A stretch of DNA of 64,000 nt from Okamejei kenojei (lineage: Eukaryota): assembly GCA_035221665.1 (NCBI GenBank), contig CM069153.1, positions 33,914,001-33,978,000 on the forward strand. The letters are read 5' to 3'. A program made the position numbers and the translations under genes. The notes under the pieces were generated by a model. It saw only the letters and a list, made by a program, of their open reading frames with translations. It was not told where the DNA came from and did not search any database. This document shows, in pieces, positions 14,647 through 59,655 of the stretch. Numbering within the stretch: the stretch's first letter is position 1; every line of letters begins with the position of its first letter.

Positions 14647-14741
14647 GTACACAAAAGGCTGGAGAAACTCAGCGGGTGCAGCAGCATCAAAGGAGCGAAG
14701 GAGATAGGCGACGTTTCGGGTCGAGACCCTTCTTCAGACTG
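14647..14741 (-). mobile_element. Short Penelope-type terminal repeat with hammerhead-like core
   Basis: Minus strand reads CTGAAGA-A-GGGTC-TC-GACCC-GAAA-CGTC. Nearly identical to the copies at 19786 and 48305. Confidence 0.7.
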
Positions 14742-14857
14742 AGAATTCAGGAGATGGAGGAGGTTAATAATCAGTATCCAGAAGACACGAATTAAAAGTG
14801 ATTACTTAAAAAATAAATAAAGGCAGCTGGAGTAATGTATTTTTGGGTCAGTGTAAG

Positions 14858-14995
14858 TTGTTATAAGGTCATAAGTAATAGGAACAGAATTAGGCCATTT
14901 GACCCATCAATTCTTCTCTGCCATTCAATCATGACTGATCTATCTGTCCCTCCTAACCCCATTCTCCTGCCTTCTCCCCATAACCCCTGACATCC
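14858..14995 (-). mobile_element. CR1 3' tail fragment
   Basis: The reverse complement resembles the 3' UTR of the 55612 CR1 copy (gttatggggagaaggcagg...gatcagtcatgattgaatggc...aatggcctaattctgttcctat). Confidence 0.7.
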
Positions 14996-15290
14996 TTTCA
15001 GATTGTGATGCACTACCTGAAAGGCCGTCCGGGTAGATTCAATAATAATTTTCAAATGAGGTATAGATTAAAATATTCCCTTTATTGAATAGGACCATTG
15101 CATATCTCTACCAAAGAGTCAGAGTTATCACAAGCATACCGGGTCAAATGATTGCTTTTATCCTGCATCATTCATTCATTTTAAATCAAGTGTCAATTTA
15201 CATATATATAAAATATATACACACAGATGGACAAATCTATAATAGTTGTAATATAATCATTTTTGTTTAATCTTGATCTCTAATTTTTAG

Positions 15291-15400
15291 ATCCTTGATG
15301 AGGCGCTTAAGATCTGTAACTACATCTTCACGATTATCTTTGTCCTGGAGTCTGTATCCAAATTAGTGGCCTTTGGTTTCCGCCGGTTCTTCAAGGATAG
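15291..15400 (+). CDS. CACNA1G: Cav3.1 exon (exon 28 equivalent): IVS2
   Basis: ttttag| ... AG|gtaaag. [36 protein letters not shown](R); 110 nt, in frame with neighbours. Confidence 0.96.
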
Positions 15401-16007
15401 GTAAAGCACCGATAAAACGTGGGGAGTAATGATATTGTATCCATGGTTTGGGACACTCTGCACCAGTTTACAAGAAAATGTGAAGCATGTTGTGTGTTGT
15501 CTATAACTAACACATGATTTTCACATCACCATGGGGCCAAATCATAGAATGTCTCAAACCAACATTAATGGTGTGACTACAGCCTCAAAATAGGATGCCC
15601 ATTAACACCTTGCTTTGTTCTCTGCCACAGTATCAGAGGCCCATTTTTGGGCAACAGATAGACCTGCGTCAGTCAAGTAATCTTTTTTTTTTCCAGAGGC
15701 AGTCCTTGGGTATTAAGGGTGACTGGGGTAGCTAGTAAAACCAACGTGGAAACTGCAGACTCTACCACAGATGGGGCAGATATTACCTAATGGGGTGGGT
15801 GGATAGGTGTATTGAAACATAAACAGGTTTTGAAGGATTCTCATTAATGACTGAAGAAAGAACATTTTGAAGAGTACAAACAACTATATTTATCAAAGCA
15901 AAAAACAGGAAACATTAATCAAGTAACAATTCTCACATCCCTCTACACATGCGAGACTCCTGTCTGCAATGGCTGGCCTGGAGACCTTGAGAGCCCGTGG
16001 TGCGTGC

Positions 16008-16012
<5 letters not shown>

Positions 16013-16062
<50 letters not shown>

Positions 16063-16122
16063 CTCTCCCCCTCTCCACCCCCTTCCCCCCCCCCCCTCTC
16101 TCTCTCCCTCTCTCTCCCCCTC
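16013..16122. repeat. (CT)n microsatellite plus C/T tract
   Basis: About 23 CT units followed by poly-C and CT runs. Confidence 0.95.
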
Positions 16123-17118
16123 TCGGAGTGAAGTTCCTAACAGTTCGGTTAAAGCATACACTTACAGTATATAATACAATAGTTACCCTAATCTAAGAAC
16201 AACGGATGGCTATGTTTTTAAACTAGCAATCCTCCTTAGTGCCAAAAACGTGAGTTATTTGTTGTAACAGATGCTGAGCTAGGATGTCTCTGAGAGGCAA
16301 ACAATTATCTCAATTATCTAGCAGGTGGCCTCATGATTTTACTGGTCCTTCTAAGATAGCCTAAGCCACCTCCCAAGACATCTAATTGTTTTCCTAGCTC
16401 AGGCAAGGCATGTGGTGCTGTTAAATTAGCTGACAACTACATTTTAGGTGAAACTGTCTATTTAACCCTTTTGTTACATTCCACCCCTTGGAGTTGTCAG
16501 TCCATCTAACTTCGTTACTGAGTATATGTCGAATCAAAATAGTCGAAGGTTCAGTACAAATCCTTCAAAATTCCCGTCAGTCACAGAAAAATATAATTAT
16601 ATTCCAGAAGATTGATATTTTTTCTGTGCTGATCTTCACTCTGCACGATTTTGTCTTGGATTAGTCATCTGGTACAGTTGCCAGAACAGTCACAAACATG
16701 TCCCACGGTTTAACATCCATGGTTTATACCATCCTAGTATACACAAATGCAAGCGTTTTTGCTTATTGCAGATCAATGACTATGATTGAGTGGCCTTGGC
16801 TCTGATTGCCGTAGGATGAACAATTTCCCATTAGTTCTGAACACTAATTCCACTCCATAGGTGTTTTGCTGGAGGTGAAGCACAGCACTGCAGCGAAAAA
16901 TGTTGATGAATTGCAGCAATGACACTGATGCAGCCTTATTTCACTCTCATGCTATTTCATACTATTGTGAAGCAAACAGCAGATAAAGGCAAATTCTGTG
17001 AGTAGCCAAATTTGAAGAGAACACCCCAAAGTCCCTCCCAGTTAATGATCAAAGGCCTTCATGAGATTGACTAAGGCCATGTAGCTGACTGCCCATTGGG
17101 AGGGGTAATTCCGAAGGA

Positions 17119-17249
17119 ATGTGTAAGAAGGAACTGCAGATGCTGGTTTAAACCGAAGATAGACACAAAAATCTGGAGTAACTCAGCGGGACAGGCAGCA
17201 TCTCTGGAGAGAAGGAATGGGTAACGTTTTGGGTCGAGACCCTTCTTCA
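17119..17249 (-). mobile_element. Short Penelope-type terminal repeat with probable TSD
   Basis: AAGGAACTGCAGATGCTGG...GGGTCGAGACCCTTCTTCA, flanked by taattccgaagga and taactcagaagga (11/13 match). Confidence 0.68.
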
Positions 17250-17336
17250 TAACTCAGAAGGACACTGGTGAATTGGTGGATTAATGAACATTTCCTATAA
17301 TTTAGAATTCAATTCATTCAGAATTCAACCAGGCAC

Positions 17337-17469
17337 TTCTTCTTCTTGCATATGGCGTGCACAGCCGAAAGTTGTAGGACAACTTGTTCTATTTGATCTT
17401 ACTTGATTGTGCATGCCAGGTTGATTGCATTAGTCGAAACAGGGTGGACCACGTGAAGGTTGCAATCTC
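17337..17469 (-). mobile_element. 133-bp retroposed insert with (AAG)n tail and 8-bp TSD
   Basis: CCAGGCAC at 17329-17336 and 17470-17477; the minus strand ends GCAAGAAGAAGAA. Confidence 0.6.
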
Positions 17470-18134
17470 CCAGGCACCATTCACCATGAATTGGCTTTTA
17501 CACAAGTTACTTACTATATTTAAATATTGCTATATTAAATAGCATCCTCCAAACCTATAACCTCTCCCCAAGAAGGACGAGTAGTAAGCACATTGTATTA
17601 TCACCGTGTTTAAGTTCTCTTCAAAGTTACATACCACCCTGATCTACAAACATATGGCCATTCCTTTATCATCTGTCTAAATACTAGAACCCAATGCCAG
17701 CACTAGAATTCATCACCATCTTTTCAAGGACAAGTAAGAATGGATTACTGGAATTAAGAAATTATCACTTCAATCACCAAGGTACAAACAGCTATGCACC
17801 AAATGCAAGTAAATGGGATTACTATAGAGAGGAACAATAGGTGGCATAGTCACAAACATGTCTATGTTTGAGGATCAAAGGGTTGATTTTGTTCTCTACG
17901 ACTCCAATGGACAATAAATGCTGGCTCTCCCAGTAACATCTGCACTCAGTAAAAGATTATAAAAAAGTCACAAGGTGCAACAAAACCATAAAGCTTTTAC
18001 ATAAGAATTGAATAAATGAAATTAAAACAGAATGTATCCTTTCTTTTAAGTGTATTTCTCTACATTTATAGCATATGTTAACTTTGACTCTGCTGCTGTG
18101 GTTTGCATTTAATTTCTCCTTTTGATTTAATCAG

Positions 18135-18268
18135 ATGGAACCAGCTGGACTTAGCTATTGTATTGTTATCCATTATGGGAATTACCCTTGAAGAGATTGA
18201 GGTGAATGCTTCTCTGCCAATCAATCCCACTATTATTAGAATCATGAGAGTACTCCGGATTGCTAGAG
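18135..18268 (+). CDS. CACNA1G: Cav3.1 exon (exon 29 equivalent): IVS3 and IVS4 voltage sensor
   Basis: tcag| ... G|gtcagt. [44 protein letters not shown], with R at every third position in S4. Confidence 0.97.
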
Positions 18269-18559
18269 GTCAGTGAATGTAAAATATTATTCACAAAGGT
18301 ATATTTAAAATTGGAAAAGTGGAATGCATGCCCCCTTTTGTAGAGTTACCCCCAACTACCTCTATAACATTGATTGATAGTACATGTGTTTTTAATGCCG
18401 GGTGAGATAAGAACCAGAGGGCCAGGTTTTCTGCAGCAATGACTGTTGACCGAGAATGCTATGCATGAACGTTTGGTGAAGTCAGATTCAACAATATCTT
18501 CTGAAAGAAAATTAGATGTACTTTCAAAAAGAGTAAGTTAACAGAATAACAGATAAAAG

Positions 18560-18800
18560 AATGAACTTGATTGAGCTTTTTGAGGTAAAGTTGAAGGAGA
18601 TTAATGAGAATAGGGCAGTGGATGTTGTCTACATGGATTTTAGTAAGGTATTTGAGAGTCTCTCATGGGGTAGGCTGATTCAGAAAATTAAGATACACGG
18701 GATACACAGTGATTTGGTAGTTTAGATTCAGAACTGGCTTACCCATAGAAGAAAGAGGATTGTAGTGGAAGAGTGCTATTCTGACAGGAAGCTTGAAAGC
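18560..18800 (+). mobile_element. CR1 LINE internal RT fragment
   Basis: gcagtggatgttgtctacatggattttagtaaggtatttga encodes AVDVVYMDFSKVF, the CR1 RT 'DFSKAFD' motif. Confidence 0.75.
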
Positions 18801-19224
18801 ATGTGCCTCACATCAGGAACAGCTTCTTCTCCTCTGTTATCAGACTACTGAACAGTTCACTAATAAGCTGGGGTGTAGTCCCGATTCTTTCACACATTGA
18901 TCAAATTTCAAGGGAGAAAAGCATAAACTATGCAATCTTTCACTGTGATAAACCTTCTCAGGTGAACTTGTGGTCCACCCCTACTAAGATCAATGTAACC
19001 CTCCTGAGGTGTGAAGCCCAGATATGAATGAGGAATCCAGACGGTGGAAAGCTCTGTACATGTACCTATTATTTCCTTATTCTGTTCAAGAACCATTGGG
19101 AGAAGTAAATGAGCTAGGATTTTCCCTGAACATTATTAGACAATCCAAGGTCTAGTAGTCAAAAAACATCTGAAATCTGATTGTTTCTCTGGCATTTATA
19201 ATCTTTGCTTATGTCCTCAAAAAG

Positions 19225-19295
19225 TCCTCAAGCTCCTGAAGATGGCAGTCGGAATGAGAGCCTTGCTGAACACAGTAATCCAGGCTCTACCACAG
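19225..19295 (+). CDS. CACNA1G: Cav3.1 exon (exon 30 equivalent): end of IVS4 and S4-S5 linker
   Basis: aaaag| ... CAG|gtgagc. (V)LKLLKMAVGMRALLNTVIQALPQ; 71 nt; MAVG is Cav3.1-type. Confidence 0.95.
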
Positions 19296-19785
19296 GTGAG
19301 CACCTTTGCTAATTTTTTATATTAATAGCAATGGCATCAGCGGGTCTTCTGCGCTGAATCAGGTGTTATCTATACTGCCCTACTTTGACAAAAGGAAGCA
19401 ACTGACAGAAAGGCGTTTTCTTGTAATTGAGGAAAATGTGTTTTTCTTTCAGCTCTCTGTGATGGAATTTCTTACTTCTCTGCTATAAATATTTTCAAAT
19501 TGTACTCGGAGAAGACTTATTTTGTTCACCATTGTGTAGAGCATATCTCAAGTACCTTAAAACAAGCAATAACTCAATTTTGACAAAATTGTCAGTTGCT
19601 TCCTTGGGTCAAATTAGGGGCAGTATAGGTCTACGCTTTGCTAGGCTGACACCAGGTAATGTTTTCTTATTTTATAGTCTATGTGTAAGAACCTTTTCAG
19701 GTCAAAAACTCAATGTTGTTACAATGCCACAGGAAAAGTTTCCTAATGCAATGCTACCATCCCTACCTGCTCTCCCATCACATGA

Positions 19786-19874
19786 GGGTACACAAAAAGC
19801 TGGAGAAACTCAGCGGGTGCAGCAGCATCTAAGGAGCGAAGGAGATAGGCGACGTTTCGGGTCGAGACCCTTCT
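19786..19874 (-). mobile_element. Short Penelope-type terminal repeat, truncated within the core
   Basis: Near-identical to the 14647 and 48305 copies but stops before CTGA. Confidence 0.7.
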
Positions 19875-22800
19875 CCCATCACATGATCCAGCTCCACTGA
19901 CAGACCCTGCTTCTCAGTCAGAAAGCCTGCCATTCCAGCAACACACTGCAGTCTGGAACATGCATCTGTTGGTCCTTCAATGCAATGCTTTTGAAAGTGC
20001 AACAATGTCAGTAATGATAATCTTTCTGGAAGATGTTAGACCATGTTTTGCCTATTATGGTAGTTAAGTAGGAACAAGAAAAATAACAAATTTAGCAATA
20101 TTCACCTCCACTCAGCTATCTTGGGCATTAACATTAATTATCAGCTTGAAATATCAGCATGGAGCTTGAGGGCTGTATTGAGGTGAATATTCCTTTCTTG
20201 GTCTTTTTTTCCAGATACTCAAGGTATGCACAGGGTCCTAATCCTTCATGCTGACTTTTCACATAAGCACTCTGGTTAATATCCAGAGTTAACACTTAAG
20301 GGTAGAAATTGAGCTAAGTTTCAATAAGAAAACCAGTCTGGGAGCCACTACTAATGATTCAATGATACTTTATTGTCACATGTACCAAGGTACAGTGAAA
20401 TGCTTTGTTCTGCATACAACCCGGCAAAATTGTACAGCAGACCTCACCTAAGCAGTGCACAAGTGTTGCCTTATGTCTGGCACTGACAAAGTTACAAATG
20501 TTCACCAAACAGACCTACTGTATCTACTGCCTGCCGCTGCACTTTCATGTCCCCACATAAATCTGCTCCCTCACCACTCTGCTAGAGGGATGCTAGCAAT
20601 ATTGTGCTTGCTTCAGGCTCAATTTAAAGTCTCGCCTCTCTTGCCTTCAAAGACATAAACATTTAAACCATTCTCAATATGCCAGTTACTCGGAGGACAT
20701 CTGCCGGAGGCTTGTAAAGTAGATCTGAATTTTCTCTGGACTATTTGTAACAATGGATCTTAATCCTCTTGTTTCAGAAGAGAAACTTTATGATGATTGT
20801 ATGATATGTGTCATTGCTCAACCAGTCATCTGAAGTGCTGTTGAACATGAGATTGATATATCCATACAGATGACAAGTTCACTGAATGATAGTTTGAGAT
20901 CCGAATTAATTTTACTAAGAGCCCACCACAGTCATTGGAAAGATAAAGCTTTAATAAAATTTGAACTGAGATTAAAGCTTGTCTTGACAGTGTTCTGATG
21001 CAATTTGATTCTGGTATCTTTACAAGAGAAGTACCTTCATTCTCTTCTGAGCCCCATTGCCAGAATTGAAATGACAGCAGGACAGAAATTGAACTAAATG
21101 GCATTTTCTGACGCTACATGACTCAATTTTTTTCTCCCCAGGTTAATTTCCGAGAGATTTCATGGTCAAATCAAGTCACACTTGAAATTTGACGGGGGAC
21201 TTTATTTTTGCACGGAAGATGGATTTCCACTTTGGGCATGCACATTGTCTGTTATCTCCTTCTTTAGTAATTATTCCAAGAAATTCTAAAGCACCTCTGC
21301 AGTTGGTCAATCTTGGCCTTAAAGCTCTATTCCCTGAGCAGGCCACTGCCAAATGCTGTGAATGCGTCTTGGGCAGGTTGATGGGTTCTTCTTTGTTATC
21401 TCCTTACACTTGACTCACCGATCACTGCTTAACTTGGAGCCTTTTCTCCAGCTAACCAATTTCCCCAATTCCACACCCACTTATTATTTACTGATTGCAA
21501 ACTATTGATTAGCCTCTGACTCACCAAATAACAGGGTCAGATTCTATCCCTCAAAAGGTGATCTACATCAGCTGCCCATTCACCCCAGTCTCCCCTCCAA
21601 TCCCTCGCCCTCCCAACCATCCCTGGGCACCCACTCCATTGCCACTTCCTGGATCTGGACTTGGTCTCAATCATATCTGCTTTCCTAAATTTTGAAACAT
21701 GCATCAGCATGCAGAGAGAGATTACTGCAAGTGGTGAATGCTATTCAGCAATTATTATCTTTAGTTTTGGAAGTATATATAGTTCATAAATTGGAAATTT
21801 GCAGCATATTCGGAATAATTGTTTTGTAATTAGAAAGTTATACAAATGTTCTCCAATTAAAAAATAATAAGCTCCTGTAAGCAATGCAAAGCCCGAGATT
21901 TGCATTTCAGTTTACTGGGGAGAATTGTAGCAATCAAACAATCTTGTCAAAAGCAGAATCATAATTTTAAATGATTCTCCTTATTCCTTTCCTCCAAAAT
22001 GTAGAATCCATTATATCTTTGGAAATGGCTCTCTTATCACTGGGAATATTCAGATATGAACATTCTAACTGACTAAGAACTGGCATTGTATTTTTATAGT
22101 AGGAATAACATTTTGCATGATACTCTTTTAGAGAGCTTGCCTTATGAATCATTCTCTAGGACTAAAGTATACAAACCTGGGAATTTTAGGACCCCTAATG
22201 AAGCCCATCAAGGTTTCAGTCATTGGCTTTCTGCTTGAAAGGTACAACAATTTAAGAATTAAAAATGTGCTTGTAGGTTCTCTTTTCCTGGGGCTGCACA
22301 TAAGAGATTGGTGGTCACTGGCACAATTGAGCTGTGTCCTAGGAAGGGATTAGGAGAAAATTGGCACTTGGTGTTAGTAGGAACTGTATTTGGGATTAGA
22401 ATTGGTAGTACATCGGAGAGGGGTGAGTATATAAACTGATCTTGTCTTTTTGATGGAGAGGTTGGGAGTCAGAGATGCAAAAGGTTAACGAGCCAACAGT
22501 GTTTTATTGTCATATGTCCCGAAATGGAATACTGAAATTCTTAGTTGCAGCAGCACAACTGGTATGTAAACACAAAGATAAATGATTTAATGACCTGAAG
22601 ATATCCCAATTAGTCAGTGTGCAGGTAAGCCCTTGGGAGTGTGTAGAACAGGTACTGCTAGGGCAGTATGGTACCAATTCCCCTTCAATGATTCTTAAGA
22701 AGCATTGAACGTGGAATGACTTTGCCCTGTATGCCCACGGCATGGACATTTCCTCAAGGTTACACGGGTAACACATGCTGGAACATGCCCTGCGTGACAC

Positions 22801-23025
22801 AAAATAACCAATGGTTATTATTGCCTTTCAATTTTCAATTTGTTCAAATTTCAGCATTTTTCAATTTAATATCTAACTAACAGACTTTTAATATCCATGA
22901 TTGATCGACCAAAGTAACAAGTTGTTGATTAATGATAGTCTCTATATTTCTATATGTCTGTGACATTCTGATCAAAGATGTCTATTTTCTGCATCTTCTG
23001 TTTTAAGCAAAAATAAAATGAAATC

Positions 23026-23079
23026 TTGCATTTTGATAAAATATCTCACATGTTGCATTTTGATAAAATATCTCACATG
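23026..23079. repeat. Perfect 27-bp tandem duplication
   Basis: TTGCATTTTGATAAAATATCTCACATG occurs twice in tandem. Confidence 0.9.
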
Positions 23080-23621
23080 CTCAGGGTGCTGCAAAGTGTA
23101 GTCCCTGAAATACATTTGTTTAGTAGTCACTCTTCTATTTAAAGAAACATAGCATCATTTATACACACCAAGCTCCCAAAACGATGATACAAAAAACTGC
23201 AGATGCTCATTCATAAAAAAGGACAGAAAGTGCTGGAGTATCTCAATGGGTACAAAAAATCAAGACATAAAGAGTTGAGTAAAAAAAGACACAGTCCAGG
23301 ACTAAAAAAGACGTTCTATGCCATTCTCCAGAGATGCAGCCTGACCTGCTGAGTTATCCAGCACTTTGTGTCTTTTTTCCCAAAAATTACCATTTGATGG
23401 TGACTATGTAATCTGTTTCAATGATGATGACTGATGGATAAATATTGACCACTGCAACAAGGAAATATATCACTGCTCTTCTTTGAATAATGTTTGTGAT
23501 CTTTTACATCCACTGGTAAGGGGAGGTAGGAATCTCAAAATAATTTCTCAGAGAAAAGGGGAATTGATCGCCTTTTGCCCTGAAAAAAGCCAATCCTTCA
23601 TGGACTTTCTCTCTCTTACAG

Positions 23622-23700: not shown

Positions 23701-24089
23701 GTAAGACACTGCATGCAGAAATACATCTATCTTGAGCTAATATTACATGTCACAGTTTGATATCCATCCCTACTGCCTGCCATTTTGTTTTTCATTTTAA
23801 TATCTCTCCTGCAACATGGTTAGAAAGGATGGCAACTATCACAGGGTGCAGATTTCTAAACATAAGTGCTAGAAAATCTGCAGATACATGTGTTCCCCTG
23901 GTCCCCACACACGCCACTCCACCTTGAGGTGGCTATCAACCCACTCAAAAGTTTTAGACTTCTAACCCTTGGGAGGGAGTGCTGAACTTCTACACTGTTC
24001 AAAGTTGTCATCAGAATATCTCAGCCATCATTTCCCCCTATTCTTTGATAATTATATAAATGTAATAATTTTTAATATCCTCATTTTAG

Positions 24090-24211
24090 AATGTGATATC
24101 GATCATCCCTGTGAGGGTTTGGGACGACATGCCACTTTCCGAAATTTTGGGATGGCGTTCCTCACCTTGTTCCGAGTATCAACTGGTGACAACTGGAATG
24201 GAATAATGAAG
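24090..24211 (+). CDS. CACNA1G: Cav3.1 exon (exon 32 equivalent): domain IV pore loop
   Basis: ttttag| ... AAG|gtgagg. (E)[40 protein letters not shown]; the Asp in TGDNW is the domain IV residue of the T-type EEDD filter. Confidence 0.97.
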
Positions 24212-25340
24212 GTGAGGTTTCTCCAACTCAGTAACACGACCTTGGGAAATGGTCAAAAGGGCAATTATATATTTCTACACACAACTTTAAGATTCCGTCT
24301 CAGCTGCAGACGTTTCAAATAAGCAGCACATTTCTAATCCAACAAAACAAATAAAGAAAAATCGCTCATAATTAAACAAATGTTCAAAATCCTCAGAATG
24401 TCTAATAATTTGTCTTCATTACTTTTGATTGAAGTCACGATTATATTTTAAGCAAAACCAGCAAATAACTTGCATGTATCTTAAAAATATTCAATGACAC
24501 AAACATCCAGGTAATCTATTTTGGTGAAAATACTGAGGTCACTCTGTAGATTTGGCAGAACCTACAATAAAAGTCAACATTTCAGGTCACTGTCTACTTA
24601 TCAGAACCGGAAGATATTAGAGAAGAACAAATTTAAGATCCTGACATTAACTTTCTTCCCATGTTAACTGATGTTAATTTCCTCATTTTTACCAATTATC
24701 TTTCAAGCACCTATCTTAATATTTGATTTGTCTAATGGTTCTGACATATGAAGCACGGCAACATATTTTCTACATATTCCATTCTCTTTCAAGTGTCATA
24801 ATTAATTAGAAATGAAAGATTTTGTTTCATGCATTGTTACCAGACAATCTTCTCTTGCCGGATATGGAATTTCTACAAAAGGGAAGAAATTAATTTTAGT
24901 TATTCGTCTTTGTATTTACGTCCAATCAATCAACTCTTTTCATAATCTTAATAGTTATTATTTTGTCTCCTCTAAAGCCATATCATTTCTTGTGGAAATA
25001 ATAATACTTTGTCATGAACTGGTTTCCCATTTTAAATGTCATTTTGGTGAAATTCTTGCTTAATGTTCCAATTGGTTATAATATCCTTATTATACTTGAG
25101 CACTATGTAACTTTTACCTTGCAAGGCGTTTTAGTTCTGCACTAAACTGGAAGTTAGCATTTTAATTGAGAAAATTGCGGAGTTGTGCTAAGGTACAGGG
25201 AGGAAAAGAAAAACATTAACATTCATCTTTACGCTTGGAGAAATTGTTTATTTACCTTGGTCTTATAATCATGCATTCACTGCCTTGATTCTCTCTATAG
25301 TAGCTTTGGTCTAAACTGCTGCTTTTCTCTTGCTTGGCAG

Positions 25341-25682
25341 GATACATTACGAGATTGTAACCAAGAGGGCACATGTTACAACACAGTCGTGTCTCCAATC
25401 TACTTTGTCTCATTCGTACTGACAGCTCAGTTTGTGTTGGTAAACGTCGTCATCGCGGTGCTGATGAAACATCTGGAGGAGAGCAATAAAGAGGCGAAAG
25501 AGGAAGCAGAACTTGACGCAGAGCTGGAACTAGAATTAAAAATGTTAAATACCAATCAAGGGAATATGGACAGTATTACTTGGGGAGGCAGTGAAGGGAG
25601 AGATGCAGGTGACAGTCCGGGAAGTCCGTCTGAGTCGCTCCAAATCAAAATGGATTCACCATTTTCTTTAGAACCACCACTG
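25341..25682 (+). CDS. CACNA1G: Cav3.1 exon (exon 33 equivalent): IVS6 and proximal C-terminus
   Basis: ttggcag| ... CTG|gtaaga. [65 protein letters not shown]...FSLEPPL; 342 nt. Confidence 0.96.
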
Positions 25683-26001
25683 GTAAGAAACAATATTTCA
25701 GTTTGACTGTTTATCATCAATATGCTTCTGATGGAAAATACATTGCGCTGTATTTTGTTTCTATGCAGAACAATAGACCTACATTTCTAAAATGTCTCTG
25801 GTCATCCAAAAAGGTTTCACAATTAGCACACTAATTTTGATATGATACGATGCAAAACAATAGAACTTTATTTATCCCAGGAGGGAAATTAATCTGCCAA
25901 CAGTCTTAAAATAAAAATGTATCTAGTGTCAAAAATGCAGCAGACAATTTCACCACAGCAATCTCCCACAACCTTCAACCATTAAAGTGGGTTATTTCAC
26001 C

Positions 26002-38848: not shown

Positions 38849-39012
38849 GTAGAAAGGAACTGCAGATGCTGGTTTAAACCAAAGATAGACACAAAAAGCT
38901 GGAGGAACAGGCAGCATCTCTGAAGAAGGGTCTCAACCCAAAACATCACCCATTCCTTCTCTCCAGAGTTGCTGCCTGCCCTGCTGAGTTACTCCAGCTT
39001 TTTGTGCCTATC
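38849..39012. mobile_element. Penelope-type inverted-pair insert with 17-bp TSD
   Basis: A minus copy followed by a plus copy; TAAGGTAGAAGTGGTGT at 38832-38848 and 39013-39029. Confidence 0.78.
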
Positions 39013-44756: not shown

Positions 44757-45040
44757 GTTGGTATCAGTGTTGAAAAGCCTAAGTTCAGCACACTTTTCAA
44801 GTGACAACTTCCACGCGAGACAATTTTCTGTCTGCAGATCTTGCTTCATCTCTCAACCCCATAATTCCCTTATCCCACCTTTCCCCCCTCACCTGGTACC
44901 ACTCCCTCCAGCCTTACATAATTTATCCTCTCATTTCCTCATCTGATACCCTTTTGTTTCCTTTCTATCTCTAGTCTTTGCCACCTACTCCACCCATCTG
45001 ATAATCACACCTCTTCCCCACCTATATCCACCTACCACTT

Positions 45041-45245
45041 GTGTAGAAAGGAACTGCAGATGCTGGTTTAAACTGAAGATAGGCACAAAAAACTGAAGCA
45101 ATTCTGCGGGTCAGATAGCATCTCTGGAGAAAAGGAATAGGTGACTTTTCGGGTCAAGACCCTTCTTCAGGGAAATGTTACCTATTCCTTTTCTCCAGAG
45201 ATGCTGTCTGACCCGCTGAGTTGATCCAGCTTTTTGTGTCTATCT
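45041..45245. mobile_element. Penelope-type inverted-pair insert with 14-bp TSD, inside an older related copy
   Basis: Two inverted arms; flanks tccacctaccactt (45027-45040) and tccatctatcactt (45246-45259). Confidence 0.72.
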
Positions 45246-45579
45246 TCCATCTATCACTTACCAGGCTTTGCCCTACTCCAATGCCTCACTTTTCCATCGC
45301 TTTCTCCCAGCTTTTGTGTACCCTCGATTCTCCAATCTGCAGTTCCTTCTTTAAAACAGTGTTCTCCAGCACTTGTTTTTGCACCCAAATTCCAGTATTT
45401 GCAGTTTCTTGTGTCTCAAACTTGCTTCCTTCTTTTCTCAAACAACTGTAAACATGGGGATGCTTTTATCCAGAATTTATTTCATTTATTTTTCAATGCT
45501 TTTATTTTCAAGCCTAGGATTAAAAGAAAAGGAATCACACTTGGTAATCATATTTGACTCCCATCATTCTGTCTCTACA

Positions 45580-45845: not shown

Positions 45846-46023
45846 ATGAATGTTAATCACACAAATCTACAGCAGACCTTTTTGAGTAGTTGTTACCATG
45901 CCCCCTATTTCTCGTCACCAATATTCCATCTTGTTGCTTGTTCCCATCCTGGGTAGATTTATGCAGTCATCTGACCATATGTATTTCAGTCTGATCTCCC
46001 CTTTCTGAGTAAAATAATAAGGT

Positions 46024-46324: not shown

Positions 46325-47749
46325 TCGGTGTCTATTATTTGCTGAGTATTGTGACCATGTTACATCCTCTGCATTGTTACAATGTACTCCTCCTGTTATA
46401 TAATTTATTGATTATCATTCGTGCCCCATTGGATTGGAACTTACAGAATTGCTGTCATTTCTCTACATAATTATTGAAAGTTTGGAAAATGTACATGGAT
46501 CTGTAGGTTGAGAACTTGCTGGCCACTTCATTCACAATCTCCTGAAGTATTACATCTATAAACTACCTGGTCTATAGTTTCAAACCTTTTGTCTTCATTC
46601 TTGAAGAAGGGAGTCGCATTTCGGGTTCATCAATCCACTGGTGTCATCGCAGAATTCATATATTTTGAAAACCTTCCATATCTTTGCTGCTAATTCCTTT
46701 AAAGCACTTGGGTGCAGGCCATTTGATCCTGGTGATTAATTTCTAATACCTTATGCGTTGTGATTGGCATTTTTTCAAATTTGTTCATACAACCTCAAAC
46801 TAAACTGTTTCCATCAGGATCTAGAATCTGTTACCATCAGGATATTTGCAGTGTTCTTCATGGTGATTATTTTTCTTTTTATATGTGCACATAAACCGTT
46901 ACTGCACACTTTGATATTACTTACAAATTTTCTCTCAACAGTAATTTTCTTTTTTATGAATATTTTAGTCTTGCTGCTGGTTCCTGAAATTTCCAATCCA
47001 TGAGTCCTTGCTACGTTGTATGCCCTACTTTTCAATTTAACTTTATTCTTAACCCCTTTTGTTAATAACGGATAGTTCCTCTTTCTCATGTAATCTCTCT
47101 TTCTAATTGAGATAGAAGTCTGCTGAGCATTATGAACAAACTGTTTAAATATCTGCCACTACTATCCACTGACCTAAGTCATAGGTTCTTTATCCAGTCC
47201 ATTCTCAACAAGTCCACCTCAGGGACATTCAAGGAATTTGACTGCAAGATAAGTCAGAGATCATGGTTTAGTTGGATCTCAATTTTTTTATTTTCACTGC
47301 TCAGCACACCAGATTTGTTCAACCACCAATGCCATCCAATACCCCCACTACAAATTTGATTCGTTAAGAACAAAGAGTAAGGAAAACAGAAATGCTGGAA
47401 AAAAAACAGCCAACCAAGCAGCATCTGTAGAAAGATCTGTTCATGTTTTGGGTCAATGACCCTTCTTCGGAACTGGGGGAAGAGTGGAAGGGTTACAGTT
47501 TTCAGTATAGAGCTGGAGGGAGAAGTGAGATGAAAGACAAATGACAATATGAACACAGGTTTAGACAGATGAATTGATACAGAACAAGAGCACTGTCAGT
47601 TTAATACGTGGGAATTTAAACAAAGAGCTATTGGCTGCAGCTTTATGGGTTCTAAATATAGCACTACCAGCTGCAGCGCTATGGGCTTTACACATAGTGC
47701 TATGGCCACAGCGCTATGGGTCACAGACTGTTCGGAAAAATTCTCGTAT

Positions 47750-48703
47750 AACTTGGAACTTGGAAAACTTTATTGTCATTCAGACCTAGGGGCCTAAACG
47801 AAATTTCGTTGCCTGCAATCATACATATAGTAAATAACAAAAACACACAATAAACACATATTTAACATCCACCACAGTGGGTTCACCAGACACCTCCTCA
47901 CTGTAGGGGAAGGCAAAAATCTTGTCTTTGTCTCTTCCCTTCTTCCTCTTCCTCTGCGCTGAGGCGACCCAGGCCTCCGATGTTGTGACTGCACCGAGTG
48001 ATGTAAATAAGTCCCGCGGGTGAACCACGCTCCGCGAGCGGGCCGGTTCAACTCCTCGGCCCGGGGCGGTCGAAGCTGCAGAAGCTGCCGCCCTCCAGTC
48101 CAGCGGACGCAGCTGTTGCCACGGGAGCTCCGGAAAAACAGGTCACCAACCTGTGACCTGCGAGCTCCCGACGATGTCGTCCACTGGGCCCGCGGCCGGG
48201 CCTCCGAAGTCGCTGCCGCCGCCACCGCCGCCGGAAAGCCGCCACAGCTCTGAGTCGGGCCGCCAGAACGCCTGAACCCGCCACAGCCCCGATGTCGGCC
48301 AGCCCAGTCTGAAGAAGGGTCTCGACCCGAAACGTTGCCTATCTCCTTCGCTCCTTAGATGCTGCTGCACCCGCTGAGTTTCTCCAGCTTTTTGTGTACC
48401 CGCGCTGGTAAGTCCTGGCTGGCTCTGCCTCCAGAGCCTCGAGGTCAGTCGCAGTTAAAGTTGGAGGCCGCTAGCTCCGAGATAGGCCTCAGCGCAGATG
48501 GAGATGGAGACGGGGGATACGACAAGAAAAGTCGCGTCCTCCCAAAAGGAAGAGACTAAGAACGTTTCTCCCATCCCTCCCACACACATACACTACATAA
48601 TAACTCAAACTAACGCTAAAAACAAGACAAGAAAACAAGAAATAAAAAGAAAAACAGACGGACTGCAGGCGAGCCGCTGCTGCCAGGGCAGAGCCGCCAC
48701 TCC
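47750..48703 (-). repeat. GC/CpG-rich interspersed repeat with a TGACAATAAA 3' end and short tandem tail; family unassigned
   Basis: Sharp GC-rich block in an AT-rich intron. The minus strand ends GAATGACAATAAAGTTTTCCAAGTTCCAAGTT. No convincing protein is encoded. Confidence 0.55.
48305..48401 (+). mobile_element. Short Penelope-type terminal repeat with hammerhead-like core, nested in a GC-rich repeat
   Basis: CTGAAGA-A-GGGTCTCGACCC-GAAA-CGTT at 48309-48336, followed by the family body ...GATGCTGC...CCCGCTGAGTTTCTCCAGC. Confidence 0.7.
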
Positions 48704-49129: not shown

Positions 49130-50290
49130 CCCACAAAGTGATCACCTGGTTTCTGAATACAGAAGAGGTGAATGGACAGGTGTCTATTTTCTCCAGTTGC
49201 ACGGGAAGGTGCTGTTGGATGGGGAATGGTGAACGGGGACAGAGTGGATAAGACGGAGTTACAAAGTGAGCGGACCCTGTGAAATGCAGAAATAGGAGGA
49301 AGGGCAAGATGTGACTGTTGATGGGATCATGTTGGACTTGGCAGAAATTGTGAAGGATATTAATTTGAATGAGAAGAATGGTGGGGTGTTTTCCAACAAT
49401 GAGTAGGCGTTGAATAGCAGATGTATAAATGATGAATTCAGATTTATGAGGCAAGTAGACGTGGTAGTGGTGGGTCACTGTTGACAGCAACTTCTAACCT
49501 ATAATGTTGTGGTCAGGTCCCCACCTTGTAATATGTATTGTGTCATGAACTCACCTTTCCTGTGTTTATTATGTACCAATACCACCTTATGTATGGTAAT
49601 CAAATATCTATCTCCAGTGAAAGACACAAAATGCTGGAGTAACTCAGCTGGTCAGGCAGCATCTCTGGAGAACTATTGGTACGTAATAAAATACACATAA
49701 AATTACACGGTGGTGATCTGACCACAGCATTATTGGTTAAGAAGGAACTGCAGATGCTGAAAAAATCGAAGATAAATATAAATGCTGGAGAAACCTAGTA
49801 GATGAGGCAGCATCTATGGAGTGAATGTTGTCTGAAGAAGGGTCTCAACCCAAAACTTCACCTATTCCTTCGCTCCATAGATGCTGCCTCACCCACTGAG
49901 TTTCTCCAGCATTTTTATCTACCCACAGCATTATTGGTGACGATTTGAGTTGGGTCCCTTCTTCAGACTGATTGTAGTGTGGGGGAGAAGAAAGAGAGGT
50001 GGTGCAGGGACAAAGCTTGGCAGGTAATAGGTTGATGCAGGTGATGGGTGTTTTGATAGGCACACGGTGGATATAGGCCAGAGATCATGTTGGAGATGAC
50101 AGAAATGTTGGAGGATGATGTGTTCAATGCAGAGACTGGTGGGGTAATGGTGAGGACCTGTGGAACTCTATTCCTGTACTGTCTGGTAAGAGGGGGAGCG
50201 AGAACATAACCATGGGACACAGAGGAGATGCAGGTAAGGGATCCATCTTTGACAGTAGATGGGAAACAATGTTTCATCTCTGACAGCAGG
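49130..50290 (-). mobile_element. Penelope-like element ORF remnants (RT thumb / linker region), fragmented and interrupted by nested inserts
   Basis: Minus-strand pieces PSTVKDGSLTCISSVS...PPLTRQYRNRVPQVLT, HPTILLIQINILHNFCQVQHDP and DTCPFTSS resemble the Penelope linker before the GIY-YIG domain (from recall). Confidence 0.6.
49738..49922. mobile_element. Penelope-type inverted-pair insert with 16-bp TSD
   Basis: CCACAGCATTATTGGT at 49722-49737 and 49923-49938; internal CTGAAGAAGGGTCTCAACCCAAAAC. Confidence 0.75.
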
Positions 50291-51032
50291 ATGGAAACCA
50301 TTAACTGCCAGGCTTTGTCTTGCCCCTCTTATCTTCCAGCTTTCTTTCCTTCCTCCCTACAATCTGTGCAAAGAAGGATTGCAACCCGAAAAATCACCTA
50401 CCCTTGCTCTCCAGAGATGCTGCCTGACCCACTGAGTTACTCCAGCATGTTGGGTTTTTTTGTAAACCAGCATCTGCGGTTCCTTTTATCCACTATCTCC
50501 AGCGTTTTTTTTAACCAAAAGATACTGGTATGCCTATCAATTAAAAATGAAGTTACATATATCAACAATGTTTTCCATCATTATATCCTCCTGTTTTGAT
50601 TTTGTGATCAATTAGCTTCCATTTTACTAAACTAATAACTAAAAACTATAAATTTAACACATTAAATATTAACAATATTATTAAAATAATAGACACTAAA
50701 GAATTTACTAAACATACATACATGTCACTTTGTTGGAGAACAAAATAATGGCGTTGATACAGCCTTCAATACAGTAGTTCACAACACCATTGGCAGCTGA
50801 ACATCATATAATTACAGCCCAGCTACGGCTATGATGACCTACAAGCTGCTTAAGCTTTTTGAGAGAGCCTGATGACAATTCAATGCATTTTATTTTTGAA
50901 ACTTTAGTAATCTCTTTGTAATAAAACTAATAATTTAAAATTGAAGAGCTTAAAAATTAGAATACAAAAAAATTAGTTTTTAGCTTTTCAGAGCCATACA
51001 AGTACATATCATAAGAAGCACCTATCTTATTC

Positions 51033-52129: not shown

Positions 52130-53399
52130 ATTAAATTATTTTTTCTGTAATATATTTATTATGGTGTCACATCAATACAGATGAACACACGATTCTGATT
52201 TCTGCCCTTAGTTGGATAACACACATCTCCAGTCATTGTGTTTTATGGCTGGCTCTCAGCTACATAAAACACAAACTCAGAATAGGTGATGTTTCGACCC
52301 GAAACATCACCTTTTCTTTCTCTCCAGAGATGCTGCCTGTCCTGCTGAGTTATTCCAGATTTTTGTGTCTATCTTCAGTTTAAACCACCATCTGTAGTTC
52401 CTTCCTATACTCTTTGTTAAGCGAAACAGGTCCTATTCTCATAATATTATTCACCTCAACTAAGTATTTTCTTCACCTCCGTTGCTATAGAGAATACAAT
52501 CCCAGTTATCAAATCTTTCTTCAAAGTGAAAAAAATAATTCCAGCCCTGCCAACATGTTCATAAATTGCCCCTGGATCCTCTCCAGAGCAATTGCACCCT
52601 TTCTACAATGCGTCATAGACTTACAGCATGGAAACAGGCCCTTCATCCCAACTTGTTCATGCAGATCGAGATGCCCCATCTAAACTAGTGCCATTTATCC
52701 GCATTTGGCCGATATCCCTTTAAACCTTGTGTGTGTCAGTGTGTGTTCGAGAGTGTAAGTGTCAGTAAAGCGGCGTCTACATCCGGAGTGAGCGGAGACT
52801 TGGCGATGTCCGGTGAGCATTTCCCTCTCTCCCGCCCCGGGAATGTGGGCCGGCTCAGGTGCTCTGTGTCCAGCTGGGGTCCGGGGTAGGTGAGGGACAG
52901 TGACCCGGGGGTCTGGGGGAGGTGAGGTTGACCCGGGGGTCCGGGGGACGTGAGGGTCAGTGGCCCGGGGGTCGGTCATCGGAGCGGAGCCTTGGCCCGA
53001 GATTCATCCCCACAGCTCCAGAGTCCAGTCCGCTCCTGGCTACGGGCCAGGGTTAAAACTCCATGGGTTGAGGACAGAGCGGCCACTGGACACAGAGCCG
53101 CCGGAGGTGAGGGTGGGAGGTGTGAGCAGTGCCTCGGGGGGTAGGGGGGGGGGGGGGGGGCGTCCGTGCTGGGACCACTTCCGTGTCTCACCTATCACAC
53201 CATTGCACGGGAATGTGAATGCGGGTGAGGCAGCATCTATGGAGCTGTAGACAAAAATGCTGGAGAAATGCTTGAGTCTGAAGAAGGGTCAAACTCAGCA
53301 TAGATGCTGCAGCATTTTCTCCAGCATTTTTGTCTACATTGCCCTTTTAAACAGTGTGCGATGGGCTTAAGCCAGTCAAATTGTTCTTTCTTTACCCAC

Positions 53400-55611: not shown

Positions 55612-56138
55612 AGCACATTAATTTGCGGAAGGACATCCTTGTGATTGAGGCAGTGCAGCGTATGTTCACGAGATTGATCCCTGGCATGGCGGGACTGTCA
55701 TATGAGGAATGATTGAAAAGACTAGGCTTGTATTCACGGGAGTTTAGAAGGATGAGGGGGGATCTTATGGAAACATATAAAATTATAAAAGGACTGGACA
55801 AGCTAGATGCAGGAAAAATGTTCCCAATGTTGGGTGAGTCCAGAACCAGGGGCCACAGTCTTAGAATAAAGGGCAGGTCATTTAAGACTGAGCTGAGAAA
55901 AAACTTCTTTACCCAGAGAATTCCCTGCCACAGAGGGCAGTCGAGGCCAAATCACTGAATGGATTTAAGAGAGAGTTGGATAGAGCTCTAGGGGCTAGTG
56001 GAGTCAAGGGATGTGGGGAGAAGGCTGGCACGGGTTATTGATAGCGGATGATCAGCCATGATCACAATGAATGACAGTGCTGGCTCGAAGGGCCGAATGG
56101 CCTCCTCCTGCACCTATTTTCTATGTTTCTATGTTTCT
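55612..56138 (+). mobile_element. CR1 LINE 3' fragment
   Basis: LRKDILVIEAVQRMFTRLIPGMAGLSYEE*LKRLGLYS...RTRGHSLRIKG; ends in (TTTCTATG)n tail. Confidence 0.9.
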
Positions 56139-56151
56139 AAACAGCACCTAA

Positions 56152-56690
56152 TTCAACGATTCAATGATGCTTTATGGTCACATGTACCTAGGTACAGTTA
56201 GATGCTTTGTTTTGCATACAACCCAGTAAAATCATATAGCACACCTCACCTAGGCAGTACACAAGTGTTGCCATGTGCCTGGTGCCGGCAAAGTTACAAA
56301 GTTCACTGAACAGTCCTATCTACTGCCTGCGGCACACGTGGCATTAGCTCCCCTTCCCGGCCCTCCTCGTTCTCCAGCCGCTATCCCTCAGCTCTCCGAC
56401 GGCCCTCCGACGGCCCTCCTCCCTCTCCGACAGCTCTCCTCCATCTCCAGTAGCCCTCTTCACTCTCGAACAGCCCTCCTCACTCTCCGACGGCTTACCT
56501 CACTATCCGACAGTCCCCTCGCTCTCGGCGGTTGCTCGAGGGTCCCTCCTCGCTCTCGCAGAGCGGATCCCATTGATGTTCACGGTGGGCGAGCCGAGCC
56601 GACTGGAGGGCTTCGCCCCACTTGCCGGGGACATTCCCTGTGTGCTGCTCAGCGGGAAAGGAGAGAATGGCCTTTTGATTCTGTCAAAGG
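56152..56690 (-). repeat. Interspersed repeat, homologous to 20355-20540
   Basis: Both share gattcaatgat.ctttat.gtcacatgtacc.aggtacagt...gcatacaaccc...cacct a.gcagt.cacaagtgttgcc...caaagttacaaa...ctactgcctgc. Confidence 0.65.
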
Positions 56691-59434
56691 TCATTGACCT
56701 GAAATATTAATGTATTTTTCTCCACAGATGTTGCCTGACCTGCTGAGAAGTTACATTAATTTTTTCATTTTAATTATTCATTTTGTACTTGTGATGCTCA
56801 GTCATAAGAAATTACACTGGGGCCATCCAGACATGATGCCAACAGACAGGAACTTGTTTTATGATATACGAATTAATTTTATCCAGAAAAAAAGATCAGT
56901 TACTGTATTGAAAATATAATAACATTTTTATTCTTTAGTGCTTTGAAGAAATGCGTTACAATTTGATTTACTTGCTTTATTATTTTTTTACACTCCTGTG
57001 ATATTCTTCCCTTTTCTTTTGTGTGTGTCCAACAGTCTTTAATTTCTTTTCACCAGAGGTCTTTCGTTAATATACTTGTCCACCACCGAAACTCATGTTG
57101 TTAACCCATTGCACACCCTCTCCCACTCACAATATGGCAACCTCACCATCATCATCACCATTGCACCTCTGCTGACTTGCCTCCCTTATATTTTGATGCT
57201 GTTTTACTTGAAGTTCGCATTAACACTGGGTCTTTCCACTTCCTTAGGATTAATGGATGTATGCATGAGAGTTGACACGCTTTTCACCAAACTTTATTAG
57301 ATTTTGAATCTATTATGCTTCGATTTACATGCAAAAAATTCTAATCAGCATTTTAAATAATTATTCATAAAATGTATGATCATTGTCAAAAAAAAACTAC
57401 GCTGGCAGGTTTGTCCACTAATTCAGTTGAATAAAGGAAACACACCTGGCAAAAATCAATGAACAGGAGAGCCATTAAAATGTGTGAAGAATGAGGATAA
57501 TTTTGAGTTTGTGTAGTCATGCACAAAAGGTGGCACTGGTTCACATGCCTGCAATACATTCTTTCTCAATTTTCATTTCCATTTCAGTTGCACAGATCCA
57601 TAATAGGCTGTCGAATGCATCAGCACACTTATGTTCAAAGTGACAATTATCCCTCAATGGACCTCACATCTAAGGTTCTGCGAGAAAATGACTCACATCC
57701 CTGGCAAGCATGCTCTTACATAAATAAGAATATGGCATTGCGTTATCTCATTAATTCAGTATGTTATGCACTGCCCATTGGCGCTAAGTCACACAGAACA
57801 AGATCTCTGTCTCAGCAAAGTTAAATTGTGATGATGATAAACTAGGCATCGGTGCACCAGAGAGAAGAAAGAAATTTAGTCAAGCTTAGCATTGATTTCT
57901 ACAGAGTGACCTGGACTAAGAACTGTGTGTGAGCACCATGTGAAGAACAAGGACACATTTAACTACAGCTTCAACTCTCCTGAACAGTACTTTGCCGAAG
58001 GTACTCGGTGTTCTTTTATAAGATGAATAGCATCTAGAGTAGCTTGCTGAAGGTTTTGAATCCTAGCCATAAAAAAACATATAAGGGAGATACTTAAAGA
58101 AAAAAATGATAGAGGTTTAAAACAGACAAGCTGGCAATTTGGTGATATGCTCATAGAATTGTGGCCTCCTTGGAGGCCTCTGAATTTAAAAGCAAGAATC
58201 TAGTCAGACAGTTTAAGGCTTCCTCTTTATCTTTCTGTCACCACCCCCAAAGAGCATGTCCTTGATTGCACCTGATTCCACCTGTGTCCAGAATTGTGCA
58301 TCGATTGGCAGTTTTGGGGCAGTCAGCCCCATTCCAGATATGGTAAACAGGAATGGCTGTCCAGAGGAGCAACTAGAATTTCCGCCACATTCACACTACT
58401 CATTTTACAACCCTTTGTTTTTTTGGTTTTCAAATTTAACCATAAAGGGTACAGAAATGCTCTTGGGTGACAACCTCTGCTTGACCGCATCTACTGGAGG
58501 TTAAGCACTTTGCCATATCCTGGGTCTAGTTGGTGTAAAGGAACGAACATTTAGTGCAATAGCCCTAGGCTCTTTCTCCTCACTTTGGAACTTCATGCCT
58601 TCATTAGAGAGAAAAACTATTTTTCCCCTTCCCTTCATGATACTTGATGGCAGGTCAGCAAGTGCAGGAGTGCTGGATGAATGGTAAATTGCAGGATATG
58701 CTGAAAAAACGTAGGTGCTGCATTTACTTTGTAACCAGTTAAAGTTTTTTAGAGACGGGAGTTGGTCAGGAAACTACTCTGGACAAAAGGGGATGAAGGT
58801 TACAGTCATTATTGCGTTGAATCAAAGGTAAAGGTTGCCAATTTCATGGAGGTAAAAGTAGGTGGTTTTCAGATGATGAGAATGCATCTCAGGAAGTCAG
58901 CTTGAGACCAAATGCGATTATTGTGATATTCATTGTTCCTGTGCCTCGCCATACTTGTGCATATGGCAATAAACTTGGCCAGATTTTATGAACAGTCTGC
59001 TTTGGTGGAAATGGCAGCTCAGAAAGGGAAGAGTATTGGCAGAAAGGGTGCAGAATTACTTTTTTACGAAAAGCAGTGAAGCAAAAGTCTTTTATTACCA
59101 AAAGCAGAGAAGCTTGTCTAGACTTGATATTGAATAATGAGCATTGGAGAGGTCATGATGAGCTGTAACATAAATATAAATTTAGAATCAGACCTTCTGC
59201 ATTCTGTTGTAGCTGAGCATCAGTGTATAGTCCAAGAAGTGATGTATGACAAGGAAAGTGATGTAAAGAGACGCCAGTTTGGGGAATGTTATGACGATGA
59301 TTGCACAGTTAAAAATAGAATGAACCAAGAATAGATCTACTAAGTTGTACAGTAGAAGAAAGACTTTGGAGGAAGATAATTTCTAGGTTGTCAAAAGTTG
59401 CAACTGTGTCAAAGAAAATTATAAGGAAAAAAGA

Positions 59435-59655
59435 TGCAAAATGTTGGGAGTAACTCAGAGGTCAGGCAGCATTTCTGAAGAACATGGGTAGGTGACGTAT
59501 CAGGTCGGGATCGTTCTTCAGATGAGTCTGCAGGAGGATCCCAACCTGGAACATCACCTCTCCATGCTCTCCAGAAATGTTGCCTGACCCGCTGAGTTAC
59601 TCCAGCACTTTGTGTGTTTTTTTTTTAGTAAACCAGCATCTGCAGTTCCTTGTAT
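59435..59655. mobile_element. Penelope-type inverted-pair repeat, diverged
   Basis: gagtaactcag..ggtcaggcagcat ... tgcctgacccgctgagttactccagc inverted arms. Further copies lie near 1864, 8590, 23195, 47385, 49621, 50375, 52275, 53222 and 56695. Confidence 0.65.

Follow-up and report, generated by a model that had tools for sequence, protein, structure and literature searches.

A stretch of 64,000 nucleotides in the genome of the skate Okamejei kenojei (contig CM069153.1 of assembly GCA_035221665.1, positions 33,914,001 to 33,978,000; hereafter the window) contains many short repeats, the best preserved of which carry the core of a minimal hammerhead ribozyme. What are these repeats, and from what RNA were they copied? 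A sequence-only reading of the window had taken them for a separate non-autonomous family, similar to retrozymes or short interspersed elements (SINEs), whose RNA its hammerhead would excise from a dimer and which a Penelope element would mobilise in trans. Our analysis points elsewhere. We hold with good confidence that the repeats are dead, truncated ends, that is, pseudo-long terminal repeats (pLTRs), of an autonomous and recently active Penelope-like element (PLE), and that they were likely copied from uncut RNA starting at the front edge of the ribozyme.

Positions within the repeat are numbered from the base after the predicted hammerhead cut (position 0, which is G1.1 at L142:3481, L142 being one of the loci fetched), and C3 of the core lies at -28. 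Repeat copies (arms) in the window were called by BLAST and nhmmer together with an alignment of each copy, and 26 candidate segments were examined. Between 1864 and 59651 we found 20 clear arms, which fall into 14 loci, and there were 4 weak ones besides. About 15 repeats had been reported between 14647 and 59655; these are real, but the family reaches further left, to 1864. The two cores noted earlier, at 14737-14710 (minus strand) and 48309-48336 (plus strand), lie at those places with the sequences given for them. The core was intact in 2 of the 26 segments, namely at 14647 and 48305. The copy at 19786, which had been described as almost identical to these two, is indeed 99-100% identical to the young type, but it begins at -24 and the CUGA box is absent. 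In the genome searched (2.76 Gb), where counts were made with exact patterns and reversed patterns served as controls, there were 32,581 matches of the 29-nt core and 58,254 matches of a 32-mer at +20 to +51; both reversed controls gave 0. The abundance of the repeat is far above chance.

Many of the core matches were preceded by a pyrimidine-rich untranslated region (UTR) and by the end of an open reading frame (ORF) for a reverse transcriptase (RT) with a GIY-YIG domain. In a protein search, 150 of 47,937 candidates were scored, and 20 with long open frames were chosen for fetching. In the loci L141 and L142, a 1,197-codon open frame is flanked on both sides by a direct copy of the repeat, and each of these copies shares 99% identity with the 97 bp at 48305-48401 of the window. 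The unit is 3,955 bp long with a partial copy upstream, which gives the usual partial tandem. Direct pLTRs are formed by the repeat in L141, L142, L144 and L155, and inverted ORF-linked copies occur in L152 and L158. The translation of the L141/L142 frame contains the motifs YIDD and YIGET; its two Pfam matches, RVT_1 at E 5e-6 and GIY-YIG at E 0.004, fell short of the curated cut-offs. It also contains a C-X4-C-X2-C linker. A CX2-5CxxC linker between RT and endonuclease (EN) is described as a trait of the Neptune/Nematis clades (PMC8557442), and judged by its sequence the skate linker fits this type of EN-containing (EN+) PLEs. That is, the linkage to Penelope elements proposed earlier proved right: the 97-bp repeat forms both pLTRs of intact RT plus GIY-YIG elements, and a look at the ends of full-length Penelope ORFs recovered it there. 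The recent activity that had been suspected is also supported, by the 98-99% identity and the intact ORFs of the linked elements.

The Penelope ORF remnant reported at 49130-50290 of the window is real as well. It gave tblastn matches of E 4e-6 (50325-50084) and E 0.039 (49403-49164), and none of five window fragments had a Pfam match. Its strand is the minus strand, and it shares only 69-72% nucleotide identity with the active family by blastn; it is a member of an older subfamily and not the source of the young copies.

Six subfamily consensuses (A, B, C, D, E and UUCG) were built from 298 bystander copies. ORF-linked members amounted to 81/245 in A, 9/49 in B, 10/91 in C, 3/19 in D, 4/17 in UUCG and 0/8 in E, where the value for A is inflated by the inclusion of protein-search loci and some links of B, D and "other" copies are neighbouring fragments. 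The UTR upstream of -32 is strongly divergent between A and B. Six loci (L091, L113, L124, L128, L132 and L136) have A-type sequence downstream and a B-type UTR, with the switch at the 5' edge of the hammerhead; template switching or recombination between subfamilies is possible for these chimaeric copies.

The 5' ends of the insertions were read in 101 young arms, of which 100 were listed places of the downstream 32-mer and 1 came from fetched DNA, each extended against L142. Fifty-three arms began at -35 to -21, 11 at -20 to -3, 2 at -2 to +1 (the cut), 4 downstream and 1 at -59. Another 24 ran more than 100 nt into the UTR or ORF of the PLE, 2 of them reaching the edge of the locus, and 6 carried the UTR of another subfamily and are not true 5' ends. 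Start patterns with two non-element bases required before the start were counted genome-wide and gave 19 matches at -38, 891 at -32, 3,271 at -30, 160 at the cut site and 92 at the +7 control. The step between -38 and -32/-30 exceeds 40-fold, and a sharp 5' boundary lies at -35 to -26. By a hand estimate from base composition, these patterns recover about 36-56% of true starts; they are unequal in degeneracy and subfamily reach, and those for -32 and -30 also admit subfamily B. Thirty cut-site loci comprised 17 inverted arms, 7 duplications or mutants and 6 solo copies, 3 of which have a target-site duplication (TSD). Since the copies start before the ribozyme and not at the cut, their ends indicate that the integrated RNA is mostly uncut.

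We think that the RNA probably has its 5' end at an initiator-like site that abuts the ribozyme. A transcription start would be the likeliest cause of the boundary. To our mind it takes the larger share of the remaining weight, with a 3' splice site and an RT stop behind it. An untemplated G is expected at such a start from the cap. Among the matches listed, 72 of 100 starts at -32 have G against 44% expected, which is suggestive only, and 3 TSD-resolved unbiased starts at -31 or -32 carry a single extra G. Promoters of PLEs have been placed in the upstream pLTR (PMC2377424, PMC6765202).

Several points weigh against this reading. The RNA 5' end is deduced from the ends of genomic insertions. 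The cap-G evidence is mixed: further TSD-resolved extras are AG, TTG and TTTAG, several of the G's are target microhomology, and at -31 G (2,332) is less frequent than A plus T (3,989). About half of the solo copies have no detectable TSD. Cut-site starts are 1.7-fold more frequent than the +7 control, so a small cleaved fraction is possible. The start-pattern ratios are approximate, and the 100 listed places of the young-arm sample come from the first 4.4 Mb of one contig (C1). Finally, some short copies may have undergone secondary amplification. Three groups of loci (L191/L192/L197, L195/L211/L212/L218 and L322/L325/L340/L346) each share both junction and flanks, and some stubs were therefore re-amplified as passengers of other repeats or of duplications.

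A 3' splice site, that is, a pyrimidine tract plus YAG ending at -30 with the copies derived from RNA processed there, is an improbable cause of the boundary. In subfamilies A, B, C and UUCG, the UTR of ORF-linked copies is indeed rich in pyrimidines and ends in CAG immediately before helix I. In addition, the 3' end of the D. virilis Penelope intron is placed at the 5' end of helix I (PMC4209133), and this 75-bp intron begins 46 bp past the start site (PMC2377424). However, a common upstream exon was not seen at the junctions, and in 12 of the 23 solo copies starting at -30 the TSD is 0-3 nt away from the start. Many starts also include A, C or CC upstream of the AG, and a GT..AG joint into the site was absent among the joints listed for contigs of four sequencing runs, which are possibly DNA.

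The 3' ends of the 101 young arms fell into two classes, 67 being short (+52 to +67) and 34 tailed (+88 to +104), with a tail of about 33 nt; the two typical end sites lie at +62 to +67 and +95 to +104. From all fetched loci we collected 31 head-to-head pairs, not an unbiased sample, in which a few rows share a locus. In 25 pairs a short arm is joined to a tailed one, in 4 both arms are short and in 2 both are tailed, while about half of the pairs would be expected to be mixed if the arms were independent. A TSD of 8-16 bp was found in 23 of the 31 pairs against a control rate of 1.8%, and in the window TSDs of 15-17 bp flank three head-to-head pairs and the 19786 solo copy. The hallmarks of PLE insertions, namely an inverted 5'-truncated copy, a one-sided tail and a TSD, were thus all found. 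The downstream part of the pLTR is predicted to pair with the tail (z -1.96; P 0.87-0.99 in four of the six subfamily consensuses). At L142:3500-3566, +19 to +27 and the tail are predicted to form a helix of 8-9 bp, without variation among the subfamily consensuses, and this helix is a candidate protein-binding or RT-start element according to the folding model.

For the PLE PAc of Anolis, Frangieh et al. (2024) report that the protein nicks both strands, that reverse transcription starts at two internal sites bounding the tail, and that uncut RNA is the main substrate, the hammerhead cleaving only with protein and being dispensable for insertion in vitro (PMC11167929). By analogy, the genomic insertion pattern in the skate fits this scheme: the two 3' ends would match the two RT start sites, the short and tailed arms within one TSD would match priming at both nicks, and the sharp 5' boundary would match the end of the template. 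We propose the following course. A promoter in the upstream pLTR of the partial tandem would start the RNA at about -32/-31. The RT-GIY-YIG protein would bind the hairpin of pLTR and tail and nick both target strands about 13 bp apart, and reverse transcription would be primed at either internal start site or at both. When primed on the 5' pLTR, it would exhaust the template after about 95 or 130 nt and leave a solo stub, priming at both nicks would give a head-to-head pair, and priming on the 3' pLTR would give ORF-containing copies of variable length. Priming at both nicks may be likened to the twin priming of L1. In the master RNA the hammerhead would likely work weakly at best, in dimeric form or aided by protein, and it would be dispensable for these insertions. 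Arkhipova et al. (2013) attributed head-to-head junctions to self-priming on an antisense template (PMC3846280), an account which predates the internal-priming result.

The separate retrozyme-like or SINE-like family of the sequence-only reading is slightly less probable still than the splice site and is not supported by the data. Non-LTR retrozymes are described as tandem units of 150-450 bp that are processed at the ribozyme into monomeric and circular RNAs, usually by canonical hammerheads (PMC7229834, 10.64898/2026.07.22.740005), and non-LTR retrozymes derived from PLE pLTRs are reported in vertebrates including one chondrichthyan (10.64898/2026.07.22.740005). Three quarters of the young arms have no ORF, which would fit such a family, and a solo copy of -32 to +98 includes the tail as well as the putative start site and could in principle be copied again. 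However, the unit was in none of the 15 tandem arrays of the window, and the sampled arms were mostly solo, inverted or ORF-linked, with a few short direct duplications. One small tandem, L241-L244 (G000:C2 ~137,651,880-137,652,110), has four direct units about 64 bp apart, every one of which starts from the predicted cut. This tandem, the only retrozyme-like one seen, lies at the junction of an inverted insertion and may be due to RT slippage. The starts also speak against ribozyme processing, those before the ribozyme outnumbering those at the cut by 53 to 2 in the 101 arms and by 3,271 (-30) to 160 genome-wide, and the junctions vary from copy to copy. Five of the six named subfamilies (all except E) have ORF-linked members. 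As for a SINE, no tRNA gene was called in the window and no tRNA-like head was found before the copies.

Least probable as a cause of the boundary is a hotspot where the RT stops or switches template on a longer RNA, set by RNA structure or a bound protein at the base of the domain: the purine run at -27 to -19 of subfamily A is predicted to pair with the end of the tail (P 0.99), closing the copied unit as one domain, and a quarter of the arms pass the boundary, but this pairing is weak or absent in three of the six consensuses (P <= 0.10), an RT that begins in the tail would presumably unwind it beforehand, and priming on the 3' pLTR is in any case expected to yield boundary-passing arms. 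Autoinhibition of the ribozyme by the tail was rejected as a general trait of the family, being predicted for subfamily A only and not conserved.

The sequence-only reading had recognised a minimal type-I hammerhead of the PLE kind, and this identification stands. The boxes CUGANGA and GAAA, the extra base after A9, the G10.1-C11.1 pair, the palindromic 15.2-16.2 and the UH triplet are all present. Helix I has two pairs only (U-G/U-A and G-C), as had been noted, and the next two positions are unpaired. Two details of the earlier drawing need revision. Helix II, drawn as 5 bp with a 2-nt loop, would more fittingly be shown with 4 bp and the tetraloop CUCG; across the family the loop is CUCG, CCCG or UUCG. 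The extra A before helix II, listed as a caveat, is not a defect but a conserved trait of PLE minimal hammerheads, in which a nucleotide is inserted between 9 and 10.1 (PMC4209133). The same source gives 4-5 bp for helix I of minimal hammerhead ribozymes (min-HHRs) and 2 bp in D. virilis. The self-complementary ACGU is predicted to be able to form an intermolecular helix III (-3.1 kcal/mol). The hammerhead fold was not the minimum-energy prediction for either monomer or dimer, in a model that ignores the core contacts. An Rfam scan of the window gave no hammerhead match at E<=10 and 12 other matches, all below their gathering scores; this null result is uninformative for minimal hammerhead variants.

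Across the six subfamily consensuses, none of the 11 core positions is variable. Four motif positions vary, and all of these changes are tolerated ones (two loop bases, the U-A/U-G wobble and N17 as C or U). Structured positions were variable in 1/21 against 15/55 downstream (P 0.055). In the 298 bystander copies the mismatch per copy was 5.7% in the core against 8.1% downstream (P 5e-6), 9.1% in helix II and 10.4% in the loop, values uncontrolled for base composition or detection bias, and we read this pattern as near-neutral decay and not as selection on the copies. The core is intact in 65/74 copies of A, 27/69 of C and 8/28 of D; that is, inserted copies decay. Covariation of the helices, which the sequence-only reading had suggested examining, yielded no compensatory changes. 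The six consensuses had only one-sided U-A/U-G changes, and 14 window-based rows scored 0.121 against 0.126 when shuffled. A pattern for a second hammerhead family with swapped pairs had 244 matches, and the 100 of them that were listed have the look of main-family double mutants. There is little power for covariation because the repeat family is too uniform. Taken by analogy with known PLEs, hammerhead activity in the master RNA is plausible.

We speculate, tentatively, that the hammerhead motif serves at once as the core promoter of the element and as its 5' end. In this arrangement the initiator YYAGTCT (A at -31) would be the 5' strand of helix I. With equal reserve, the GUC cleavage triplet would lie at the spacing of a downstream promoter element, +29 to +32 from the start by the consensus for that element. 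We take the boundary sequence to match the initiator consensus in the subfamilies seen, and the cleavage triplet to match the downstream-promoter spacing. If this is true, the tens of thousands of insertions would be an in vivo record of uncut, start-site-capped RNA serving as the transposition template; it would also explain why PLE hammerhead cores are conserved despite poor cleavage, and would make their function testable. In PMC8557442 the function of PLE hammerheads is stated to be unclear.

The copies in the window are listed in Table 1.

Table 1. Repeat copies and the ORF remnant in the window
Position	Strand	Feature	Remarks
1864..1951	plus	Older solo copy, -27 to +64	Decayed core; BLAST/nhmmer, alignment
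14647..14741	minus	Young subfamily A solo pLTR end, -32 to +63	Intact minimal hammerhead core 14737-14710; 98% to L142 pLTR; TSD not found
17125..17249	minus	Older tailed solo copy, -27 to +95	G12 altered; BLAST/nhmmer, alignment
19786..19874	minus	Young solo pLTR end from -24, without CUGA box	15-bp TSD 19771-19785 / 19872-19886
23186..23381	minus arm 23195-23254, plus arm 23326-23371	Decayed head-to-head pair	Candidate 8-bp TSD
38849..39012	both	Head-to-head insertion, tailed minus and short plus arm	17-bp TSD
45040..45247	tailed minus arm 45048-45170, short plus arm 45172-45239	Head-to-head insertion	TSD not found
47381..47476	minus	Old diverged solo copy	75% identity (alignment)
48305..48401	plus	Young solo pLTR end, -32 to +65	Core 48309-48336 intact; 99% to both pLTRs of L141/L142; TSD not found
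49164..50325	minus	Old PLE ORF remnant (thumb/linker region)	Frameshifted, broken up by later pLTR stubs
49624..49970	minus	Older copy in two parts, 49933-49970 and 49624-49670	Split by later insertion
49738..49922	both	Head-to-head insertion, tailed minus and short plus arm (49830-49924)	16-bp TSD
50371..50485	plus	Old tailed arm, inverted against 5' side of ORF remnant	Alignment
52291..52417	plus	Older tailed solo copy, start -18	Alignment
59429..59658	both	Old head-to-head insertion, short minus and tailed plus arm	15-bp TSD, 1 mismatch

The triplet in the core of the 48305 copy is GUU, likely a CpG decay of GUC, and a GC-rich stretch of about 900 bp (47797-48700) surrounds this copy. The arm at 50371 and the ORF remnant would correspond to the usual inverted-pLTR layout of PLEs. 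The hairpin of the head-to-head insertion at 45040 gives rise to a sub-threshold MIR1507 match in Rfam. A T-type voltage-gated calcium channel alpha-1 gene has exons on the plus strand at 13969-14259, 23966-24319 and 25269-25703 (best match CACNA1G, E 7e-32); at least the copies at 14647-23381 sit in introns of this gene, and the three solo copies there are antisense. A Tc1/mariner-type transposon at 28395-29979 has inverted repeats and a 317-codon open frame matching HTH_Tnp_Tc3_2 and DDE_3. A second dispersed family with a tRNA-like head, presumably of the chondrichthyan HE1/V-SINE type, occurs at 11193-11445, 12264-12549, 45600-45764, 46022-46284 and other places.

The element class, the min-HHR motif and the insertion layout are already known, and the gain here is mechanistic detail, not a new kind of element. 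The skate family and its fixed 5' boundary were undescribed in the literature searched, which consisted mostly of open-access main texts. The genomic read-out agrees with the dispensability of the hammerhead, in that the integrated RNA appears almost always to keep an uncut ribozyme and to begin at its front edge. The head-to-head pairs mostly combine what would be both RT start sites inside one 13-bp staggered cut, and the intact 1,197-codon copies offer a Neptune-type test system.

How does the skate family compare with known systems? With the non-LTR retrozymes of animals, as described in PMC7229834, it shares a type-I hammerhead, kinship to PLEs and a short non-coding unit. Unlike them, the skate copies are solo or head-to-head, flanked by TSDs, identical to the end of a PLE and not bounded by the cut site. 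The likeness to the min-HHRs of metazoan PLEs in PMC4209133 is closer, since both have the CUGANGA and GAAA boxes, the extra base, G10.1-C11.1, the palindromic 15.2-16.2 and no helix III, and both occur in the two pLTRs of full elements. That report describes mostly dispersed single motifs, "probably related to truncated PLEs", and some close pairs on opposite strands. The skate helix II has 4 bp against 7-8 bp in Schistosoma, whereas helix I has 2 bp as in D. virilis; the skate core is almost invariant across subfamilies, and its exact copies number more than 32,000, compared with 4,000-9,000 given for coelacanth and Xenopus. The passages of that report consulted name no chondrichthyan.

With EN+ PLEs of the Neptune/Nematis type (PMC8557442, PMC3846280), the skate family shares a single ORF that combines RT with GIY-YIG at the C terminus, the linker, pLTRs in partial tandem, the inverted 5'-truncated copy, the one-sided tail of 30-40 bp and the TSDs. 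It differs from the descriptions given there in that very short stubs dominate and a sharp common 5' boundary lies at the front edge of the hammerhead. The Poseidon element PAc of Anolis (PMC11167929) resembles it in the two RT starts bounding the tail, the proposed nicking of both strands, the uncut template and the hammerhead near the junction of pLTR and ORF. PAc belongs to a different clade, and its ORF begins inside helix II, whereas the skate open frame begins after the tail. The evidence for PAc is biochemical, whereas that for the skate is genomic only and consists of tens of thousands of insertions.

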